Shown piece by piece: positions 9,225 to 55,138 of a DNA stretch of 64,000 nt. The stretch covers positions 146,635-210,634 of the forward strand of contig JAZIGM010000057.1 in the NCBI GenBank assembly GCA_036679085.1, read 5' to 3'. Both the position numbers and the translations under genes were made by a program. Source of the DNA: Chloroflexota bacterium (GTDB lineage Bacteria > Chloroflexota > Anaerolineae > Aggregatilineales > UBA3940). The notes below the pieces were generated by a model, which was given only the letters and a program-made list of their open reading frames with translations, did not search any database and was not told the origin of the DNA. Numbering within the stretch: the first letter of the stretch is position 1; every line of letters begins with the position of its first letter.

Positions 9225-10256
9225 ATGGCAGACGACGATCGTCTCGTCTCGGGCAGCCGGAAACTCGACGAAACCGAGAACCTCGACGCGGCGCTGCGCC
9301 CCCGTTCGCTCGACGACATCTACGGGCAGGACAGCCTCATCGAGCGGCTTCGCATCCTGATCGAAGCCGCGAAGGCGCGCGGCGAAGCGCTCGACCACAT
9401 CCTCTTCTACGGGCCGCCGGGCCTCGGCAAGACCTCGCTCAGCCATGTGATGGCGCACGAGATGGGCGTAAACATCCGCATCACTGCCGGGCCGGCCATC
9501 GAGCGCGCCGGCGACCTCGCCGCCATCCTGAGCACGCTGCGCAAGGGCGACATCCTGTTCATCGACGAGGTGCACCGGCTGGGCCGCGCGGTCGAGGAGG
9601 TGCTGTACCCGGCGATGGAGGACTTCGCGCTGGATATCGTGATCGGCAAGGGGCCGAGCGCGCGCAACGTCCGCCTGAAACTGCCGCGCTTCACCGTCAT
9701 CGGCGCGACGACGCGGCTGGCCCTGATGACCGCCCCGCTCCGCGCGCGCTTCGGCGCGGTGTACCGCCTGGACTTCTACAGCGTCGATGCGCTGGTGCAT
9801 ATCATCGAGCGCGCCGCCCGCATGCTCGACGTGCCCATCGACCGCGCCGGTTCGGAGGAGATCGCCCGGCGGGCGCGCGGCACGCCGCGTGTGGCGCTGC
9901 GCCTGCTGCGCCGCGTGCGGGACTACGCGCAGGTCCGCGCCGACGGCATCATCACCAAAGAGGTGGCGCAGCGATCGATGGACCTGATGGAGATCGACGA
10001 GCTGGGGCTGGACGACATCGACCGGCGCGTGCTGCACGCCATCATCGAGAAGTTTGGCGGCGGCCCCGTCGGGCTGGACACCATCGCCGCGTCGATCAGC
10101 GAGGAAGCGGACACCATCATGGACGTGTACGAGCCCTTCCTGCTCCAGCTTGGCTTCATCGAGCGAACGCCGCGCGGGCGTGTCGCTACGCCCCGCGCCT
10201 ACGAGCACCTCGGCATCGAGTACAATCAGACAGAGGAGCAACAGCGCCTGTTTTAG
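9225..10256 (+). CDS. ruvB: Holliday junction branch migration DNA helicase RuvB
   Basis: 343 aa; [15 protein letters not shown] Walker [11 protein letters not shown], full-length RuvB pattern. Confidence 0.96.
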
Positions 10257-11169: not shown

Positions 11170-11418
11170 GTGTTTGAACTCGATTCGCTGGCAAAATGGC
11201 TGATCGCGCTCGGCCTGGGCGTCGCCGCCTTTGGCCTGCTGCTGTTCCTGCTGGGGCAGATCCCCGGCACCGACCGGCTGGGGCGGCTCCCCGGCGATCT
11301 ACGCTTTGAGCTGGCGGACGGGCGCATCTCGTGCTTCGTACCGATTGTGAGTTCGATCCTTCTGAGCATTATCCTGACTATCGTGCTGAACGTGATTATC
11401 CGGCTGTTTAACCGGTAG
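11170..11418 (+). CDS. DUF2905-like small membrane protein
   Basis: 82 aa; two TM segments; GRLPGDLRFE...FVPIVSSILLSIILTIVLN. Confidence 0.7.
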   Translation: MFELDSLAKWLIALGLGVAAFGLLLFLLGQIPGTDRLGRLPGDLRFELADGRISCFVPIVSSILLSIILTIVLNVIIRLFNR

Positions 11419-11484
11419 AGGCCGGGGCCGCTCGCCCCTGCCGCTTTTTGAACCCGGCATCTTCTCAGCCAGAGAGAACGGCTC

Positions 11485-16587: not shown

Positions 16588-16717
16588 TATCAAATCACCT
16601 CCGACGGGCGATGGATCAGATTTCGTTGTCCGGGGGCAGACGCCTCCCGGCACGCAGCCGGGCGCGCCCGTATCGTCGCCTTCGAGTTTAACGCGGAAAT
16701 TCTAACATGGCAGGGAA

Positions 16718-17140
16718 GCCGGGCAATAAATTGCCCGGCTATAAGGCGGCTGCGCCGCCGCGAAGTCCCCTATCGGGGACTTGTTTATGTTCGGAGCATC
16801 GCCTCAGAGGGCAAGAGTCCCGCAGGGACCTGGCGGGATAGCAAAGCCATCCCTTTTAGCCGGGGAATCAATTCCCCGGCTACCCTCACCCCGGGTGAGC
16901 CACCTGCGGCGCCTCGCCCTGCCCCTCTCCCGGGCGGCCACTATCGTGGCCTGGGAGAGGGGGCCAGGGGTGAGGGTTGTAACCCGCCACGGATGCAGGG
17001 ATAACGTATGTAGGGGCGGGTCTGAGACCCGCCCCTACCAAAGACGGTCCATAGCGTGAGGATAGCCGAGCATAAATCGTCCGGCGACGTGATAGCCTCG
17101 CTATCCGGGCGGCTGCGCCGCTCGCTTAATCGCCCTGCTA
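16718..17140. repeat. array of GC-rich hairpin modules (left flank of the transposase homolog; reverse orientation of the composite unit)
   Basis: gccgggcaataaattgcccggc, ggcggctgcgccgcc, gtcccctatcggggac, gggatagcaaagccatccc, ccggggaatcaattccccgg, cccctctcccgggc..tgggagagggg, gtaggggcgggtctgagacccgcccctac. Confidence 0.85.
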
Positions 17141-17159
17141 GGGCTTTGGGTACACTACT

Positions 17160-17678
17160 ATGCTAATTCCGGACAAGCCTTTAATTGCCGGGCGGGTAAT
17201 GATTACCGGGCAACCACAAAGGCGATACACCTTGGCATACTGGCGCCAATTCTTCCACATTGTGTGGGCGACGTATCGACGGCAGCCTCTTCTATCACCG
17301 GAAATCGAACCTCGCGTGCATCGAGTAATAACCGCGCTCTGCAGCGAACAGGGTGGTCAGGCATACGCTGTGAATGGAATGCCGGACCACATACATATGG
17401 TGACTACCATCCCGCCGACACTTTCCACTGCAACCTTTGTCAAGAAGCTAAAAGGGGCTTCGTCCCACTTTATCACCCACGAACTCGGTTGTCCTTTCCG
17501 CTGGGAGGCAGGGTACGGAGTCCTGACGATCAGCCAGCGGAACTTGCGACAGGCTATCGACTATGTGAATGGCCAGAAGCAGCATCATGAAGCAGGGCAA
17601 GTCTTCAAGGCTTATGAACTCTCGAGCACCAAGAATGATGGCCCGAAATCATTGAGGCTGAAACCAGCCAGCAGGTAG
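17160..17678 (+). CDS. IS200/IS605-family Y1 (HUH) transposase homolog, RAYT-like
   Basis: 172 aa; FFHIVWATYRRQPLL, HUH motif PDHIHMV, tyrosine helix AIDYVNGQKQHH; no tnpB partner. Alternative start ATG 17199, because the first ~55 nt contain hairpin-like sequence. Confidence 0.85.
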   Translation: MLIPDKPLIAGRVMITGQPQRRYTLAYWRQFFHIVWATYRRQPLLSPEIEPRVHRVITALCSEQGGQAYAVNGMPDHIHMVTTIPPTLSTATFVKKLKGASSHFITHELGCPFRWEAGYGVLTISQRNLRQAIDYVNGQKQHHEAGQVFKAYELSSTKNDGPKSLRLKPASR

Positions 17679-17689
17679 CCTTGTCAGGT

Positions 17690-17954
17690 GGAGTCCGCTT
17701 GCGGACTTCGCGGCGGCAAAGCCGCCTTGTAGCCCGGCAATTGATTGCCGGGCGGGATCTGGCAACCAAGCCACCAAGCCACCGCCCAGGAATAGAATTC
17801 CCGGGCTACAAGGGATAGCTTCGCTATCCCGCAAAGTGCCCTGACGGGCACTCCCAGCCCAAAGGGCCGGCGTCTCCCTGCGGGAGACGGAGTCCGCCTG
17901 CGGCGGACTTCGCGGCGGCGCAGCCGCCTTTTAGCCCGGCAATTGATTGCCGGC
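17690..17954. repeat. array of GC-rich hairpin modules (right flank of the transposase homolog; forward orientation)
   Basis: ggagtccgcttgcggacttc, gcggcggcaaagccgcc, gcccggcaattgattgccgggc, gggatagcttcgctatccc, gtgccctgacgggcac, gtctccctgcgggagac, ggagtccgcctgcggcggactt, gcggcggcgcagccgcc. Confidence 0.85.
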
Positions 17955-17986
17955 GCCAAATCCCCACCCACATCGCAAAATTCATG

Positions 17987-18015
17987 TTGACGCCTTACAC
18001 CACCCTTGCTATAAT
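17987..18015 (+). promoter_or_regulatory. sigma70-type promoter for tRNA-Asn: TTGACG-17-TATAAT
   Basis: TTGACG 17987-17992, 17-nt spacer, TATAAT 18010-18015; the tRNA starts 13 nt downstream. Confidence 0.6.
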
Positions 18016-18028
18016 TCCCCACGGTCGT

Positions 18029-18100
18029 TCCACCGTAGCTCAACGGCAGAGCATCCGGCTGTTAACCGGAGGGTTGCTGGTTCGAATCCAGCCGGTGGAG
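18029..18100 (+). tRNA. tRNA-Asn (anticodon GTT)
   Basis: Hand-folded cloverleaf: acceptor tccaccg/cggtgga, anticodon arm tccgg-ctGTTaa-ccgga, T arm gctgg-ttcgaat-ccagc; CCA not encoded. Confidence 0.9.
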
Positions 18101-18104
18101 CTAG

Positions 18105-18137
18105 GAAGCCCGGCTCGTGAAGCCGGGCTTCTTCTTG
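18105..18137 (+). terminator. hairpin with T-rich tail downstream of tRNA-Asn
   Basis: gaagcccggct-cgtga-agccgggcttc followed by ttcttg. Confidence 0.55.
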
Positions 18138-18176
18138 ATTGCCCGCACCTTCACAGCCTGTTATAATTGCCTCGTC

Positions 18177-18647
18177 ATGATGGATGAGCACGAGCGCTGG
18201 ATGCGAGAAGCCCTCGCCGAAGCCGAAAAGGCGGCGGCGCTGGGGGATGTGCCCATCGGCGCGGTGATCGTCCATGATGGCCGGGTCATCGGGCGCGGAT
18301 ACAACCGCAAGGAGCACGACAAAGACCCGACTGCGCACGCCGAGATCATCGCGTTGCGGCAAGCGGCGGCGACGCTCGGTGGGTGGCGGCTCGTCCCCGG
18401 CACGACGCTCTACTGCACACTGGAGCCGTGCGTGATGTGCGCCGGGGCGATGATCCAGGCGCGGCTGCCCAGGCTCGTCTGGGCGGCGGATGACCCGAAG
18501 GCCGGGGCGGGCGGCTCGGTGATGGACCTGCTACACCATCCGCAACTCAACCACCAGGTTGAAGTCATCAGCGGGGTGCTGGCCGAGGAAGCCGCCGAGC
18601 AGATCCGCGAGTTCTTCCGGGGGCTGCGCGCGCAGGGCAAGAAGTAG
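18177..18647 (+). CDS. tadA: tRNA adenosine(34) deaminase TadA
   Basis: MMDEHERWMREALAEAEKAAALGDVPIGAVIV, HAEIIALR, TLEPCVMCAGA zinc motif. Start moved to ATG 18177, in frame with track ORF 18117. Confidence 0.92.
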   Translation: MMDEHERWMREALAEAEKAAALGDVPIGAVIVHDGRVIGRGYNRKEHDKDPTAHAEIIALRQAAATLGGWRLVPGTTLYCTLEPCVMCAGAMIQARLPRLVWAADDPKAGAGGSVMDLLHHPQLNHQVEVISGVLAEEAAEQIREFFRGLRAQGKK

Positions 18648-18670
18648 TTAACAACCGCAGACGACCATAC

Positions 18671-18757
18671 GGAGGGGTGCCAGAGCGGACGAATGGGGCG
18701 GTCTCGAAAACCGTTGTAGCCTTCCGGCTACCGTGGGTTCGAATCCCACCCCCTCCG
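18671..18757 (+). tRNA. tRNA-Ser (anticodon CGA)
   Basis: Acceptor ggagggg/cccctcc, anticodon loop ctCGAaa, long variable arm gtagcc-ttcc-ggctac, T arm gtggg-ttcgaat-cccac. Confidence 0.9.
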
Positions 18758-18766
18758 CCTCAAAGC

Positions 18767-42939: not shown

Positions 42940-43710
42940 ATGTTGCCGGTCCTGCAGGTTGGCCCGCTGAGCATCCGCATGCCCGGCCTGGTGCTGCTCG
43001 CCGCGCTATGGCTTGCGCTGGAGGTCGCCGCGCGGGCGGGGGTGCGGCGCGGGCTGAACCCCGACCGCCTGTACAACTTCGGCTTTCTGGTCGTGGTGGC
43101 GGGCATTGCCGGGGCGCGGCTGGCGTTCGTGCTGGCGCACCTCAACCTGTACACGCGCATCACCCCGGTGACGCGGGCGCTCGGCGCGGCCCTCTCGCTC
43201 TCCCCCGGCACGGAGATCGCCTGGGCGGGCGTACTGATCGCGGCGGCTGCCGCCGTACTGCTCGCCCGGCTGTGGCGTCTGCCGCCGCTCCCCCTCGCAG
43301 ACGCCTTCGCCCCGGCGCTCGCCGTCCTCACGCTGGGCGTGGGGCTGGCCGCCCTGCTGCGCGGCGACCTGCTTGGCATGCCCGCCGACCTGCCCTGGGC
43401 CATCGACCTCGCCGGGGCGAGACGCCACCCGACGCAGGCTTACATCATGCTGGTGGCCGCCGCCGCGCTGATCGTCGCGTGGCGGCTGGAGCGCACCCCG
43501 CCGGAGCGCCGCGCGCCGGGCACGCTGGCGCAGATCGTGGTGATGGTGCTCTGCGTGGGCGTGCTGCTCGTCGAGCCGCTCCGCGCCGACAGCGCCACCA
43601 TCGGGCCGGGCCTGCGGGTGATGGCCGTGGTCGCGCTCGCCGTGCTCGTCGCCGATCTCGCGCTGTTCGCCGCCCGCGCGCCGGTGCGGGTGGAAGAAGA
43701 CATGGCGTAG
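42940..43710 (+). CDS. prolipoprotein diacylglyceryl transferase-like membrane protein
   Basis: 256 aa polytopic; GIAGARLAFVL and RRHPTQAYI resemble Lgt motifs, but the central GG..HGG motif is not evident. Confidence 0.5.
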   Translation: MLPVLQVGPLSIRMPGLVLLAALWLALEVAARAGVRRGLNPDRLYNFGFLVVVAGIAGARLAFVLAHLNLYTRITPVTRALGAALSLSPGTEIAWAGVLIAAAAAVLLARLWRLPPLPLADAFAPALAVLTLGVGLAALLRGDLLGMPADLPWAIDLAGARRHPTQAYIMLVAAAALIVAWRLERTPPERRAPGTLAQIVVMVLCVGVLLVEPLRADSATIGPGLRVMAVVALAVLVADLALFAARAPVRVEEDMA

Positions 43711-43721
43711 GGGCGCCCCCT

Positions 43722-43946
43722 GCCCGGCAATGAATTGCCGGGCTATGTGTAATTGTCCGCTCCGCGGACAGAGGCGCCGGGCAATAAATTGCCCGACTAA
43801 AAAGGGATTGCACCGCAATCCCGCGAAGTGCCCTATCGGGCACTCCCGGCCCGAAGGGCCGGCGCCCCCACAGGGGGCGGAGTCCTCCTGCGGAGGACTT
43901 GGCGGTGGCGCAGCCACCTTGTAGCCCGGGAATTCCATTCCCGGGC
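43722..43946. repeat. multi-hairpin composite repeat (forward orientation)
   Basis: Same module order as 54794-54969: A gcccggcaatgaattgccgggc ... B gggattgcaccgcaatccc, C gtgccctatcgggcac, D, E gcccccacagggggc, F ggagtcctcctgcggaggactt, G ggcggtggcgcagccacc, A gcccgggaattccattcccgggc. Confidence 0.85.
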
Positions 43947-50114: not shown

Positions 50115-51191
50115 TTACAGGATCAACATCGCATCGCCGAACGAATAGAACCGGTAGCCCGCCTGCTGCGCCTCCTGGTAAGCCCGGAGTATCGTCTCGC
50201 GCCCGGCGAAGGCGCTCACCAGCATCAGCAGCGTGGAGCGCGGCAGGTGGAAGTTCGTAATCATAACATCAACCGCCATGAAGCGATAACCGGGCCGGAT
50301 GAACAGGTCGGTCGCCTCGTCGATGGCGATCACCGGGCGCCAGGGACAGCGGTCGCCGTCCGCCTCGTACGGATCGCCGGTGATGCCCGCGCTGCGCAAC
50401 GCCGCCGTCTCCAGCGTGCGCACCGAGGTCGTGCCCACAGCGATGATGCGCCCGCCGGCGAGCTTCGCCTCGTTGATGATGCGGGCGTCGTCGGCGGAGA
50501 GCACAGCGCGCTCGGTGTGCATACGGTGCTCGCGAGGGTCCTCGACGGTGACGGGCTGGAAGGTGTCCAGCCCGATGTGCAACGTACAGTAGGCCATCTT
50601 CACGCCCGCACGGCGGAGCTCAGCGAGCAGTTCCGGCGTGAAGTGCAGGCCGGCAGTCGGGGCCGCCGCGGAGCCCTCGATGCGGGCATAGACAGTCTGG
50701 TAGCGCTCGGCGTCGGCCAGCGGTTCGTGGATGTACGGGGGCAGGGGTATCTCGCCGATGACGCCAAGCAGCGGCCCCAGCGGCTGGTCAAACTGCACGA
50801 CACGCTCCGAACGCTCGCCCTCTTCGATGACGACGCCCTCGACGGTTGTGCCATTCTGCCCCTCGAACGTGAGGCGTGTCCCCTGACGCACGCCTCGCCC
50901 GCCGACGATACCGCGCCAGGTGCGGTCCTCGACGCGGCTCAGCAGCAGCAGTTCGACCTTGCCGCCAGTGTCGGTTTTGTGGCCGTGCAGCCGCGCCGGG
51001 ATGACCCGCGTCTGGTTGAAAACCAGCACATCGCCCGGCCTCAGGTATTCCCCGATATCGTAGAAGTGACGGTGCTCGATGTCGCCGGTATCGCGGTGCA
51101 GCACCAGCAAGCGCGAGGCGTCACGCGGCTCGATGGGTGTCTGGGCTATCTGCTCTTCGGGCAGATAGTAGTCAAAATCACTGGTTTTCAT
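50115..51191 (-). CDS. queA: tRNA preQ1(34) S-adenosylmethionine ribosyltransferase-isomerase
   Basis: 358 aa; MKTSDFDYYLPEEQIAQTPIEPRDASRLLVL, VGTTSVRTLE, RFYSFGDAMLI. Confidence 0.95.
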   Translation of the reverse strand: MKTSDFDYYLPEEQIAQTPIEPRDASRLLVLHRDTGDIEHRHFYDIGEYLRPGDVLVFNQTRVIPARLHGHKTDTGGKVELLLLSRVEDRTWRGIVGGRGVRQGTRLTFEGQNGTTVEGVVIEEGERSERVVQFDQPLGPLLGVIGEIPLPPYIHEPLADAERYQTVYARIEGSAAAPTAGLHFTPELLAELRRAGVKMAYCTLHIGLDTFQPVTVEDPREHRMHTERAVLSADDARIINEAKLAGGRIIAVGTTSVRTLETAALRSAGITGDPYEADGDRCPWRPVIAIDEATDLFIRPGYRFMAVDVMITNFHLPRSTLLMLVSAFAGRETILRAYQEAQQAGYRFYSFGDAMLIL

Positions 51192-51292
51192 GAAGGTCTC
51201 TGAACCGTTCTCGTCAACAACGACTCTCTAATATCAATAGATTCTCTATAGAGTGGATCAGTGTGTATTAATAGTAGTGGCTTTAGTAGGGC

Positions 51293-51652
51293 CTGTTCAA
51301 ACTGTTCAAAAGTGCGCTGGCAGGCCTGTTTGCCCCTATATATAGGCTTCTTTGCCACGAGCCGCCTATATATGGGGGGAGTCTATCAACATTGACGGCT
51401 CGCCGCCCGTCGAAACTTCTGATGATAACTTGTTGATAGTCTGCGCCGGTTTTAAACACTGTCGATAACCCGTCGATTCGGCCCAAAACTTTCGACAGCG
51501 GACAACGCCCGTGTTGAAAGATTCCAGCGAGTTCTTGACACGCTTTCAACAACGGCTGCGCATGGTTCCACAACAGATTGCACAGCCCTTTCGACACCAT
51601 TACGGGCGGTTTTCGACAGTGTTTGAACAATTCCGGGCGGGGTTTTGAACAA
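51293..51652. repeat. two-armed array of at least 12 copies of 9-mer TTT[CG][GA]ACA in a lower-GC non-coding region
   Basis: Minus-strand copies at 51293, 51302, 51407, 51459, 51470, 51511. Plus-strand copies at 51490, 51544, 51589, 51611, 51622, 51644. CCTATATATAGG palindrome at 51335-51346. Confidence 0.8.
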
Positions 51653-51743
51653 CGGCGGCCCCGGCGCAGGTCGCCGGAATCACGCAGGGGCGAGTTGCCC
51701 CGCCCCTGCCGGTAAGTCGATGCGGTTTGCGTCGCGGTGACGC

Positions 51744-54473
51744 TCAGGCCTGCTCCATCTCTGCGCGGAGCATGTCGCGCAGCACCGCGTGCAGGATGCC
51801 GCCGTTGCGGTAGTACTTCACCTCGACGGGTGAGTCGATACGGGCGATGGTGGTAAATACCTTCTCCTCATTCGTGCCGGGCACGCGAGCGCGCACCGTG
51901 ATCTCCTGCCGGGGCCGGATGTCGCGGCTGATGCCCTCCACGTCGTAGACCTCATAGCCGGTCAGCCCCAGTGTCTGGGCGTTCTCGCCCGGCTTGAACT
52001 GGAGCGGCAGCACGCCCATGCCGACCAGGTTGCTGCGGTGGATGCGCTCGTAGCTCTCGGCGATGACGGCCTTCACACCCAGCAGGAGCACGCCCTTGGC
52101 CGCCCAGTCACGCGAGCTGCCTGTGCCGTACTCCTTGCCGGCGATGACCAGGAGCGGCGTGCCCTCGTTCTTGTAGAGCATGGCCGCCTCGTAGATGCTC
52201 ATCTCCTGCCCGTCCTCCCGGCGGGCCGCGCCCTGCGGCAGGTAGACGGTCACACCGCCCTCGGTGCCGGGCACAAGCTGGTTGCGCAGGCGGATGTTGG
52301 CAAACGTCCCGCGCATCATGACCTCATGGTTGCCGCGCCGCGAACCGTACGAGTTGAAGTCGCGCCGCTCGACGCCGTGCTCAACGAGGTACTGCCCCGC
52401 CGGGCTGGTCAGCGGGATCGACCCGGCAGGCGAGATGTGGTCAGTCGTGACGGAGTCGCCAAGCAGCGCCAGCACCCGCGCGCCCCGGATGTCGCCGATC
52501 TCCGGTTCCTCCGGCGTGAGGTCCTTGAAGAACGGCGGCTCCTGAATGTACGTCGAGTTCGGGTCCCAGGTGTACAGTTCGCCCTTCGGCACGGCGATCT
52601 GGTTCCACATCTCGTTGCCGGTAAAGACGTTCGCGTACTCCTCCTCGAACATCTCCGGCTTGAGCGCGTTGTGGATGGTCTCGCGGATCTCCTCCTGAGA
52701 CGGCCAGATGTCGCGCAGGTACACGGGCTGGCCCGACGGCGTCGTACCGATTGGCTCGGTCTCAAAGTCGATGTCCACCGTGCCCGCCAGCGCATAGGCG
52801 ATGACGAGCGGCGGCGAGGCCAGGTAGTTGATCTTCGTCAGCGGGTGGATGCGCCCCTCAAAGTTGCGGTTGCCGCTCAGGACCGCGGCCACAACCAGGT
52901 CCTGCTCCTGCACCGCCTGGGCGACATCCTCCTGGAGCGGGCCGCTGTTGCCGATGCAGGTCGTGCAGCCGTAGCCAACAACGTGATAGCGCAGCGCCTC
53001 CAGGTAGGGCATCAGCCCGGCTTCGGTGAGGTAGCGGGTCACGACCTTCGAGCCGGGGGCGAGGCTGGTCTTGACGTGCGGCGGCACGCTCAGCCCCAGT
53101 TCGACGGCCTTTTTCGCCAGAAGCCCCGCGCCGACCATCACCGCCGGGTTGGAGGTGTTGGTGCAGCTTGTGATGGCCGCAATGACAACCGTACCGTCCG
53201 TCACAGCGCTCTTGCTGCCATTGGTGGCGGCTGCCTGCTCCCCGCGATGGCCGTTCTCCTTCAGTTCGCTCAGCACCTTGCGGAAGGCCTGCTGGCTGCG
53301 GGCCAGCGGGATGCGATCCTGCGGGCGCCGGGGGCCGGCGATGCTCGGCTCCACATCGCCGAGGTCCAACTCCAGCGTGGCGGAGTAGACCGGGTCGGGC
53401 GAGTCGTCGGTGCGGAACATCCCCTGCGCCTTGGTGTACCGCTCGACGAGGTCAACAAGCGCCTCGCTGCGACCCGTGCTGCGCAGGTAGTTGAGTGTCT
53501 CATCGTCGACCGGGAACAGGCCGATGGTCGCGCCGTACTCCGGCGACATGTTGGCAATCGTCGCGCGGTCGGCGAGGCTGAGCGTGCTGACGCCCGGCCC
53601 GAAGTACTCCACAAACTTGCCGACCACGCCGCGCTCGCGTAGCATCTGCGTGACGGTCAGCACGAGGTCGGTGGCGGTTGCGCCCTCGCGCAGCTCGCCC
53701 GTCATGCGGAAGCCGATCACCTCCGGCATGAGCATGTAGATCGGCTGCCCGAGCATGACCGCCTCGGCTTCGATGCCGCCCACACCCCAGCCGACGACGC
53801 CCAGCCCGTTGATCATCGTGGTATGCGAGTCGGTGCCGACCAGCGTGTCGGGGAAGGCGATGGTTTCGCCGTTGACCGTGCTCGTCTGCACGACCTTTGC
53901 GATGTACTCCAGGTTGACCTGGTGCACGATGCCGGTGGCGGGGGGCACAACCCGGAAGTTAGCGAAGGCGTCCTGCCCCCAGCGCAGGAACTCGTACCGC
54001 TCGCGGTTGCGCTCGAACTCGCGCTCGGCGTTGTACATCAGCGCAAAGGCCGAGCCAAACTGGTCCACCTGCACCGAGTGATCGATCACGAGGTCAACGG
54101 GCACGACCGGGTTAATGCGGGTAGGGTCGCCGCCCAGCCGCGCCATCGCCGAGCGCAGCGCGGCAAGGTCGACCACGCTGGGCACACCGGTGAAGTCCTG
54201 CAGGATCACACGGGCGGGCTTGTACGGGATCTCCTGCTCGCCGGGGCGGGCCCAGGTGGCAAGGTTCACGACGTCGTCGCGGGTGATCTCGAAATTGTCA
54301 AGCTGCCGGAGCGCGGCCTCCAGCATAATTTTCATCGAGTAAGGCAGGCGAGATACGTTGCCGATCCCCTCTTCCTCCAGCCGGGTGATGCGGTAGATGG
54401 TTACCGGCCCGTTGGGGGTTTCCAGCGTCTCGCGTGCGCCGAAGGGGTCTATGGGCTGGTCTTGGTTGCTCAT
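51744..54473 (-). CDS. acnA: aconitate hydratase AcnA
   Basis: 909 aa; full-length aconitase A pattern ([34 protein letters not shown]). Confidence 0.96.
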
Positions 54474-54793
54474 CTCTCCTCGCTATCCGTTCTGTGAGCA
54501 CTCATTCGCTCGAACAACTGTTTTAGGGTTAAACTATCAGATGCAGCTACACCGATGGCGTGACAATCTGCAGTGAGTTTTGAGGTTAAGGGGCCACAAT
54601 GATGGTCAGCGTGCCCGGGCTGCCCAAGGTTCTCTTAAAGTATAGCGAATTGGTCCAGATTCTTGTAGTTGAGAGGTGGTGGGGCTGGGGAACCCCTCCG
54701 AACGGCCCAAAGGGTCGTCCACCTCTTCTAAAAGGGGGCGTGGAGAACGGCGTTGTCCTTTGTCGTGTCACCTGATCGCCCCCTAACAGCCCC

Positions 54794-55138
54794 GCCGGGG
54801 AATGGAATTCCCCGGCTAAAAGGGATAGCGGAGCTATCCCGCGAAGTGCCCTGACGGGCACTCCCGTCCCCTCCGGGGACGGCGCCCCCATAGGGGGTGG
54901 GAGTCCGTCGCAGACGGACTTGGCGGCGGCGCCAGCCGCCTGCCCGGCAATTTATTGCCGGGCGTCCTCGCCGGGGAATGAAGTTCCCCGGCTAAAAGGG
55001 ATAGCGGAGCTATCCCGCGAAGTGCCCTGACGGGCACTCCCGTCCCCTCCGGGGACGGCGCCCCCAAGGGGGCGGGAGTCCGTCGCAGACGGACTTGGCG
55101 GCGGCGCCAGCCGCCTGCCCGGCAATTCATTGCCGGGC
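54794..55138. repeat. tandem duplication (about 97% identity) of a 176-bp unit made of eight different hairpins
   Basis: Unit 1 is 54794-54969; unit 2 is 54970-55138. They differ by only 4 substitutions and 1 indel by my alignment. Confidence 0.9.

Follow-up and report, generated by a model that had tools for sequence, protein, structure and literature searches.

A probable DnaA-dependent replication origin in the queA-acnA spacer of an uncultured Anaerolineae lineage from anaerobic digesters

Introduction

The oriC of Escherichia coli, located between gidA and mioC, has a DUE at one end, then an array of boxes in the orientation of R1, and at the far side a helically phased array of the opposite orientation. 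For the Bacillus subtilis-type oriC, a basal unwinding system (BUS) was reportedly described by Richardson in 2016. A BUS is built from tandem DnaA boxes, a GC gap averaging ~4 bp, DnaA-trios (3'-GAT-5'), and AT-rich DNA (PMC8287927). In the B. subtilis type, these parts are represented by DnaA boxes 6 and 7, a GC cluster, the trios, and an AT-rich region, all located between dnaA and dnaN (Pelliciari 2021, PMC8287927). The rules for BUS prediction allow 0-16 bp between a box and the trios, the box usually being one of a tandem pair at most 3 bp apart, and call for a run of three or more NAN trios, with a preference for 3'-GAT-5' beside the box; the modal distance between the better box and the trios in predicted BUSs is 13 bp (PMC8287927).

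Here we analyzed a 64-kb stretch of DNA (hereafter the window) from a Chloroflexota bacterium, in which the spacer between queA and acnA may be compared with both systems (Table 1). As in the B. subtilis BUS, the two boxes nearest to the trios abut, the GC spacer is 4 nt long, the 3'-GAT-5' trios have the same strand and polarity, AT-rich DNA lies ~80 nt before a gene start, and the distance between box 1 and the trios equals the mode of 13 bp. Unlike the B. subtilis BUS, the spacer is flanked by acnA and queA rather than by dnaA and dnaN, its boxes are far from the consensus, and its run of trios is split 2 + 4. The likeness to E. coli oriC lies in a location that is not beside dnaA, a candidate DUE at one end with the nearest box in R1 orientation, two opposed box arrays with ~11-bp steps, and the directions of the flanking genes, as queA leaves the DUE side (like gidA) and acnA approaches the far side (like mioC). 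Unlike E. coli oriC, the spacer has neither 13-mer repeats nor clustered GATC, and no IHF or Fis sites were identified in it. In addition, the boxes resemble the variants of cyanobacterial and Deinococcus-like type (TTTTCCACA), in which T replaces A at position 3, and the exact TTTTCCACA is found in the sister species L092. The difference from these variants is that positions 5-6 are CG, CA, or GA instead of CC in nearly every box of the window species.

Table 1. Features in and around the queA-acnA spacer (positions in the window).
Feature	Position	Strand	Remarks
queA	50115-51191	-	NCBIfam NF001140, 439 bits; reads away from the DUE side of the candidate origin
AT-rich segment, candidate DUE	51205-51268		Between the trios and the queA start codon
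Putative DnaA-trio array	51269-51289	+	TAA TAG TAG TGG CTT TAG TAG
GC spacer GGCC, 4 nt	51290-51293		Between boxes and trios
Putative BUS DnaA box 2, GTTTGAACA	51294-51302	-	Adjoins the trio side, 4 bp from the first trio; abuts box 1
Putative BUS DnaA box 1, TTTTGAACA	51303-51311	-	13 bp from the first trio
Inverted pair CCCCTATATATAGGC / GCCTATATATGGGGG	51333-51378		15 nt, 93% complementary
Middle box field	51383-51520		Mixed orientation; offsets from the trios as in L091, with those of L092 similar
Middle-field exact box CTATCAACA	51383-91	+	
Middle-field exact box CTATCAACA	51431-39	-	
Middle-field exact box TTATCGACA	51460-68	-	
Middle-field exact box CTTTCGACA	51489-97	+	
Middle-field exact box CTTTCAACA	51512-20	-	
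Middle-field one-mismatch box	51408-16	-	
Middle-field one-mismatch box	51450-58	+	
Distal arm, seven co-oriented boxes	51543-51651	+	Starts at 51543, 51564, 51576, 51588, 51610, 51621, and 51643
GC-rich hairpin GCAGGGGCG...CGCCCCTGC	51684-51709	-	Downstream of acnA; read from the sequence
acnA	51744-54473	-	NCBIfam NF006757, 1420 bits; reads towards the distal arm

Genomic context of the spacer

The assignment of both flanking genes, queA and acnA, to the minus strand in the original prediction was confirmed by NCBIfam models. The spacer between them (51192-51743; 552 bp) has no credible ORF and a GC content of 40-54%, compared with ~66% in the window, in agreement with its earlier description as a non-coding island of lower GC. 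The genes near the spacer have housekeeping functions (GNAT acetyltransferase, dprA, recJ, alanine dehydrogenase, and gatCA), and the annotation of neighboring genes revealed no rep, par, integrase, or mobile-element genes flanking it. An Rfam scan produced no match in the spacer and only two tRNAs in the whole window, both located elsewhere. A scan of the spacer for promoter and terminator consensus sequences also returned nothing, including no T-run terminator, a result that is weakly informative for a Chloroflexota genome. As read from the sequence, the GC-rich hairpin downstream of acnA is probably the terminator of this gene and would mark the edge of the candidate origin.

Among the GTDB loci listed, the nearest relatives of the window QueA are found in Anaerolineae (Chloroflexota) MAGs, with at most 76% identity. 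In the index of the assembly collection, 130 blocks list an identical QueA protein, and the contigs shown with this protein include anaerobic-digester and biogas-fermenter metagenomes. The gene order and the 552-bp spacer are the same in every contig read with the identical QueA, indicating that the locus is genuine chromosomal DNA of an abundant, uncultured organism. Because the context is common to more than 10 independent assemblies, an assembly artefact is excluded.

A putative basal unwinding system

On the minus strand, positions 51311 to 51272 contain TTTTGAACA-GTTTGAACA-GGCC-CTACTAAAGCCACTACTA followed by AT-rich DNA, or, when divided into triplets, TTTTGAACA GTTTGAACA GGCC CTA CTA AAG CCA CTA CTA and then TTAATAC. 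Judged by its layout, the stretch 51272-51311, which had been overlooked in the original prediction, is the putative BUS of an oriC. The spacing of the two boxes and their distances to the first trio (Table 1) are within the ranges given for predicted BUSs. Read 3'-5' from the boxes, the trio array is GAT GAT, TTC GGT, GAT GAT AAT TAT, and a conserved 6-nt interruption, AAGCNA, divides the run into 2 + 4 trios. Since this interruption occurs after two trios, the rule of at least three trios fits only the second run. The distance of this run from box 2 is 16 bp, the largest that the rules allow. For the boxes themselves, the rule is that the better one has at most two mismatches to the (species-specific) consensus. 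When scored against TTATCCACA, which may not be the consensus of this host, TTTTGAACA has three mismatches and GTTTGAACA has four, both above this limit, and box 1 of L092 (GTTTCCACA) has two.

The trios are adjoined by the AT-rich stretch that had been reported for the left part of the spacer. With 35% GC, positions 51208-51287 have the second-lowest value among the 80-bp windows of the 64 kb, and the segment is AT-rich in all three species compared below. The ATG of queA is located 80 nt beyond the BUS block. The candidate DUE lies directly between the trios and the start of queA, so the queA promoter and 5' UTR must fall within it as well. Based on its composition and position, this segment (51205-51268) would be the DNA that is unwound.

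Clustering, orientation, and sequence of the boxes

The exact 9-mer TTT[C/G][G/A]ACA[A/G/C] has 12 matches in the window, nine of which are located at 51293-51652, compared with an expectation of ~1.8 per whole window and at most five in any shuffle. Of the original claim that the spacer contains at least 12 copies, the clustering holds with nine exact copies, and the sites at 51407-15, 51459-68, and 51470-78 are only near-matches. With a wider box definition, NT[A/T]T[C/G][A/C/G]ACA (NTWTSVACA), 12 exact boxes were found in the 552-bp spacer versus six in the other 63.4 kb, which corresponds to a more than 200-fold higher density in the spacer. In 2000 composition-matched shuffles of the spacer, the mean was 0.16 and the maximum was three. 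Three of the boxes had escaped the first reading, namely both copies of CTATCAACA in the middle field and GGTTCCACA at 51564-72 (+).

As described before, the left copies are mostly on the minus strand and the right copies on the plus strand, where seven copies form the distal arm. These seven boxes run opposite to the BUS boxes and have spacings of 21, 12, 12, 22, 11, and 22 bp, or ~11.1 bp per step. Their offsets are identical in L091, and the equivalent array of L092 advances by 11, 22, and 33 bp.

None of the spacer boxes matches TTATCCACA exactly. A single mismatch is found only in TTATCGACA, the same minus-strand site (51460-51468) that had been listed as one of the two closest matches to a DnaA box. 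The earlier remark that a central G departs from the consensus also applies widely, as nearly every copy has G or A at position 6. Boxes with a CC core account for 1/17 in the window species versus 5/18 in L092. Given that species-specific box variants are known, the mismatch to TTATCCACA lowers certainty while leaving it possible that the boxes belong to an oriC. Their proposed equivalence to DnaA boxes rests on the occurrence of TTTCCACA at the homologous sites of L091 and L092.

Between the box field and the BUS, the TATATA palindrome and near repeat of the original prediction are present as CCTATATATAGG (51335-46) and CCTATATATGG (51365-75), and these make up the inverted pair in Table 1, which may be a site for an accessory protein. 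A CCCC..ATATRT..GGGG pair is kept at this location in L091 and L092.

Conservation among and within species

A homologous spacer is found directly upstream of queA in L091 (89% QueA identity) and L092 (82%), and L118 is of the L092 type. The neighbors upstream of the spacer differ, with DUF2905 in L092, DUF2905 together with an IS200-type Y1 transposase and hairpin repeats in L091, and acnA in the window. In an alignment of the three species, the BUS block (51266-51310) is the most conserved 45-nt stretch, with 37/45 positions invariant; the invariant share is 45% for the spacer overall and 60-64% for the first 42-45 nt of queA. Within this block, BUS box 2 is identical in the three species, and the trio stretch is invariant or nearly so.

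The positions of the boxes are also conserved. The window and L091 share the same offsets from the trios (-362, -340, -329, -307, -295, -283, -262, -231, -208, -179, -102, -22, and -13), and L092 has an equivalent set. The sequences at these positions vary. The -22 box, which is BUS box 1, is TTTTGAACA in the window, TTTTCGACA in L091, and GTTTCCACA in L092, the -262 box is either CTTTCAACA or CTTTCCACA, and the -180 box is either TTATCGACA or TTTTCCACA. More generally, the sequence at a given site switches among TTTCCACA, TTTCAACA, TTTCGACA, and TTTGAACA, with position and orientation kept. This interchange at fixed sites suggests that a single protein, able to accept canonical DnaA boxes, probably reads all variants. 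Most simply, the protein reading these variants, including those with a TCCACA core, would be DnaA.

At the level of the species, 13 contigs were compared. Single-nucleotide polymorphisms in the spacer are located only in the candidate DUE or on the acnA side, with none in 51269-51652, and those in the DUE keep or raise its AT content.

The same layout at dnaA- and dnaN-flanked origins

As a positive control, the BUS block was abstracted to a 39-nt degenerate pattern, TTTCNACANTTTSNACANNNNCTACTANNNNNNCTACTA, and the metagenome collection was scanned; a C was fixed at one position to exclude the window species itself. The pattern matched 55 metagenome contigs (L094-L148). A DnaA homolog is encoded directly upstream in 47 contigs (49 have at least 700 bp of upstream sequence), and a DnaN homolog follows directly on the downstream side in 45 (downstream sequence of 500 bp or more is available in 46). 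The DnaA gene ends 94-580 bp upstream of the match, or 1210 bp in one contig, and the DnaN gene starts 31-650 bp downstream. Both assignments were confirmed by Pfam in a sample of these contigs. The control contigs, which span 22% to 63% GC, have TTTCCACA-type tandem boxes, a 4-nt GC-rich gap (GCCC, GCAC, or CCCC), CTA repeats, and very AT-rich DNA. The exceptions are L118, which is of the L092 type, and L119, a false positive match inside a CTA-rich repetitive coding region. The TTTCCACA tandem boxes are also found in L138 and L144, which we take to be Deinococcus-like from reading their sequences. In L117 (Armatimonadota), DnaA is encoded upstream, and the downstream gene is one other than dnaN.

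The polarity of the control contigs is the same as in the window, where queA occupies the usual position of dnaN. In particular, the polarity of the trios and their position relative to the boxes match those of 53 dnaA- and/or dnaN-flanked origins, such that the layout is identical to that of origins recognizable by their flanking genes. The S variant of the BUS pattern has one match in the window, at 51272-51310 on the minus strand, and none in shuffled sequences. In several of the dnaA/dnaN-flanked origins, the BUS boxes are TTTCAACA or TTTGCACA, which indicates that departures at positions 5-6 occur in genuine origins. The 39-nt pattern is highly specific for dnaA- and/or dnaN-flanked origins across phyla.

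Absence of dnaA nearby and GC skew

In line with the earlier observation that dnaA is not nearby, tblastn revealed no dnaA in the window, and gene calls for the 10 kb beyond its right end did not include one either. The stretch lacking this gene extends 51 kb to the left and 21 kb to the right of the spacer. Likewise, dnaN is absent from the gene calls of this 10-kb extension. None of the candidates considered for the DnaA of this lineage was retained. The neighbors of P0230, an abundant DnaA cluster, were read as a non-Chloroflexota gene context, and the highest-GC dnaA-linked matches are either Deinococcus-like (L138 and L144) or from Armatimonadota (L117).

Over 1-56 kb, the cumulative GC skew declines steadily from 0 to about -650; it has a plateau at 50-57 kb and rises thereafter, with a minimum at 56.5 kb versus 51.3 kb for the locus. 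The amplitude of ~0.02 is weak and refers to 72.5 kb, which is part of the replicon. In the 10-kb rightward extension, the curve is flat beyond 64 kb. After correction for gene strand, the skew is about -0.019 on the left and about +0.012 on the right, where the side available is short. Beyond recJ on the right, most genes are on the plus strand. These values agree weakly with an origin at the spacer. A comparison of GC3 skew among ruvB, queA, and dprA orthologs with and without the origin, aimed at a flip, was too noisy, with sister lineages ranging from -0.21 to +0.04. Among other Anaerolineae (42 loci with 6-kb flanks), no systematic skew switch was found at queA.

Probable insertion and inversion in the history of the site

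In L001, L093, L152, and L153, for which QueA identity is 76-79%, ruvB, DUF2905, and queA are contiguous, the gap before queA is 0-14 bp, and there are no boxes nearby. In L092, the order is ruvB (C-terminus), DUF2905, 481 bp, and queA, which places the candidate origin exactly between DUF2905 and queA. A box cluster at queA was found in none of the 80 other Anaerolineae queA loci scanned (0/80), indicating that the element is not a general queA operator. Its absence in relatives with 76-79% QueA identity indicates that this origin position is derived within a small clade. For the original proposal to examine conservation in relatives, the outcome is mixed, with the spacer and array kept in L091 and L092 and missing in those more distant relatives. 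We read this absence as pointing to a lineage-specific origin position or an extra origin, and not as evidence against an origin. From the gene orders compared, the element is a recent arrival at the site and could serve as a second or auxiliary origin.

The window differs further from the ruvB-X-DUF2905-ori-queA order of L091 and L092. Here, ruvB (9225-10256), an uncharacterized gene, and DUF2905 (11170-11418) are located 40 kb from queA on the opposite strand, which points to an inverted segment spanning about 11.45-51.7 kb, one end of which lies at the distal edge of the candidate origin. An 11-nt inverted match, CTCGCCCCTGC / GCAGGGGCGAG, is found at both junctions (11432-11442 and 51684-51694), and the hairpin downstream of acnA coincides with one junction of this 40-kb inversion. 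A tentative and rather doubtful scenario is that oriC in this genus-level clade is a discrete cassette of ~0.5 kb that entered an otherwise collinear gene cluster between DUF2905 and queA and, in the window species, later came to lie at the end of the 40-kb inversion. Under this scenario, the origin moved cleanly, or the clade passed through or is still in a two-origin state, with the boxes changing from TCCACA to TCGACA/TGAACA and possibly tracking the specificity of DnaA domain IV.

Several repeats and insertions were observed in the same region. A GC-rich hairpin module of ~176 bp with several short hairpins constitutes a dispersed repeat family. It is tandemly duplicated in the acnA-recJ spacer (54790-54965 and 54966-55138), where L150 has one copy and the window, L149, and L151 have two. 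Other copies are located at 17782-17953, 43775-47, and 16718-16880 (minus), and partial copies at 17702-17754 and 43699-43743. The family is also represented in L091 (1234-1296 and 1873-1970), where related sequence flanks the IS200-type Y1 transposase gene. This association suggests a system of the REP/RAYT-like or MITE-like kind. A gene-poor stretch of ~1.46 kb with lower GC (window 16654-18116) contains copies of the hairpin repeat and is followed by tRNA-Asn(GTT); tRNA-Ser(CGA) is located at 18671-18759, at the end of the adjoining interval 18029-18759. In a single strain, L082 (14613-16181), an IS605-type insertion carries a Y1 transposase and an OrfB/TnpB-like gene. Its site corresponds to ~46.6 kb in the window, between the M23 peptidase and PIG-L genes, and the insertion is missing in the window and the other contigs.

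Interpretation and alternative explanations

Based on the features above, we consider it likely, at a probability of roughly 0.8, that the spacer is the DnaA-dependent chromosomal replication origin (oriC) of this anaerobic-digester Anaerolineae. An origin with 9-mers resembling DnaA boxes was also the leading interpretation in the original prediction, and the conserved module, the presence of TTTCCACA in sister species, and the positive control all argue for it. An unlikely variant of this interpretation is that the module is a ~0.5-kb copy of oriC that was inserted between DUF2905 and queA and is secondary, auxiliary, or decaying, with the ancestral oriC located elsewhere, e.g., beside dnaA. 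The clean look of the insertion (481 bp in L092 versus 0-14 bp in L152, L153, L093, and L001), the drift of the window boxes from the consensus (CC-type in 1/17 compared with 5/18 in L092), and the weak skew switch would all be expected of such a copy. However, the strong conservation of the BUS block and box positions in three species is contrary to decay, the skew is negative to the left and positive to the right of the locus, and stable two-origin bacterial chromosomes are rare.

The remaining explanations do not involve initiation by DnaA at this site. A cluster of many DnaA-type boxes upstream of a gene, with dnaA absent nearby, could in principle be a titrating or reactivating locus (datA, DARS) or provide DnaA-dependent control of the queA promoter. 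We regard such roles as very unlikely, because neither titration nor regulation needs tandem boxes in register with a GC spacer, trios, and an AT-rich element, because the BUS module is the most conserved part and elsewhere marks dnaA/dnaN-flanked origins, and because other Anaerolineae express queA without the element. We give still less credence to an array of operators or iterons bound by some other protein than DnaA, be it a regulator, a plasmid-type Rep from foreign DNA, or a response regulator with TGTCGAA-like sites. The commonest core, TGTCGAA(A), is indeed not a canonical DnaA box, and the GC content of the spacer is below that of its surroundings, but the homologous positions in L092 and L091 are canonical TTTCCACA, no rep, par, or integrase genes are present among the housekeeping neighbors, and the element recurs stably in more than 10 assemblies and in three species. 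The original alternatives, an operator array for a regulator of queA, plasmid-type iterons, and a remnant of foreign DNA, found no support in view of these neighbors and the 0/80 result at queA loci. Three specific candidates were also set aside. The TGTCGAA core coincides with the Spo0A 0A-box consensus of Firmicutes, which was rejected on taxonomy given that Spo0A is, to our knowledge, confined to that group. The LexA/Cheo box was rejected on sequence alone, as the GAAC-N4-GTTC palindrome is absent. For a plasmid-type iteron origin, the repeats would be direct repeats of ~17-22 bp by a rep gene, and those found here are 9-mers in both orientations.

Proposed mechanism and implications

If the spacer is the oriC, we infer from its layout that DnaA would bind, unwind, and fire the origin as follows. 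DnaA may recognize ~17 boxes of the relaxed consensus TT[T/A]T[C/G][G/A/C]ACA, with the distal arm and the opposed proximal boxes nucleating two DnaA oligomers, similar to the left and right halves of E. coli oriC. The tandem boxes (51294-51311) would direct a DnaA-ATP filament across GGCC onto the trios, and this filament would open the adjacent AT-rich DNA, at about 51205-51268, for helicase loading. The forks would then proceed to the left through queA and to the right through acnA.

An origin module composed of DnaA boxes, trios, and AT-rich DNA is known; the features that appear unusual here are the off-consensus boxes and a lineage-specific site far from dnaA. Such a case suggests that an origin can look functional without a single consensus DnaA box. 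With three and four mismatches in TTTTGAACA and GTTTGAACA, finders keyed to the E. coli consensus (TTATCCACA with at most two mismatches) would miss this origin, and the geometry of boxes, GC spacer, and trios can still identify an origin where such finders fail. For this abundant uncultured Anaerolineae of anaerobic digesters, the spacer provides a likely origin position, which is needed for peak-to-trough growth estimates from metagenome coverage and replichore-aware analysis, and it is relevant to finding origins in uncultured Chloroflexota. Finally, the spacer is a possible case of recent origin relocation, and the presence or absence of the origin between the same flanking genes in close relatives would make this clade a tractable case for studying origin movement.
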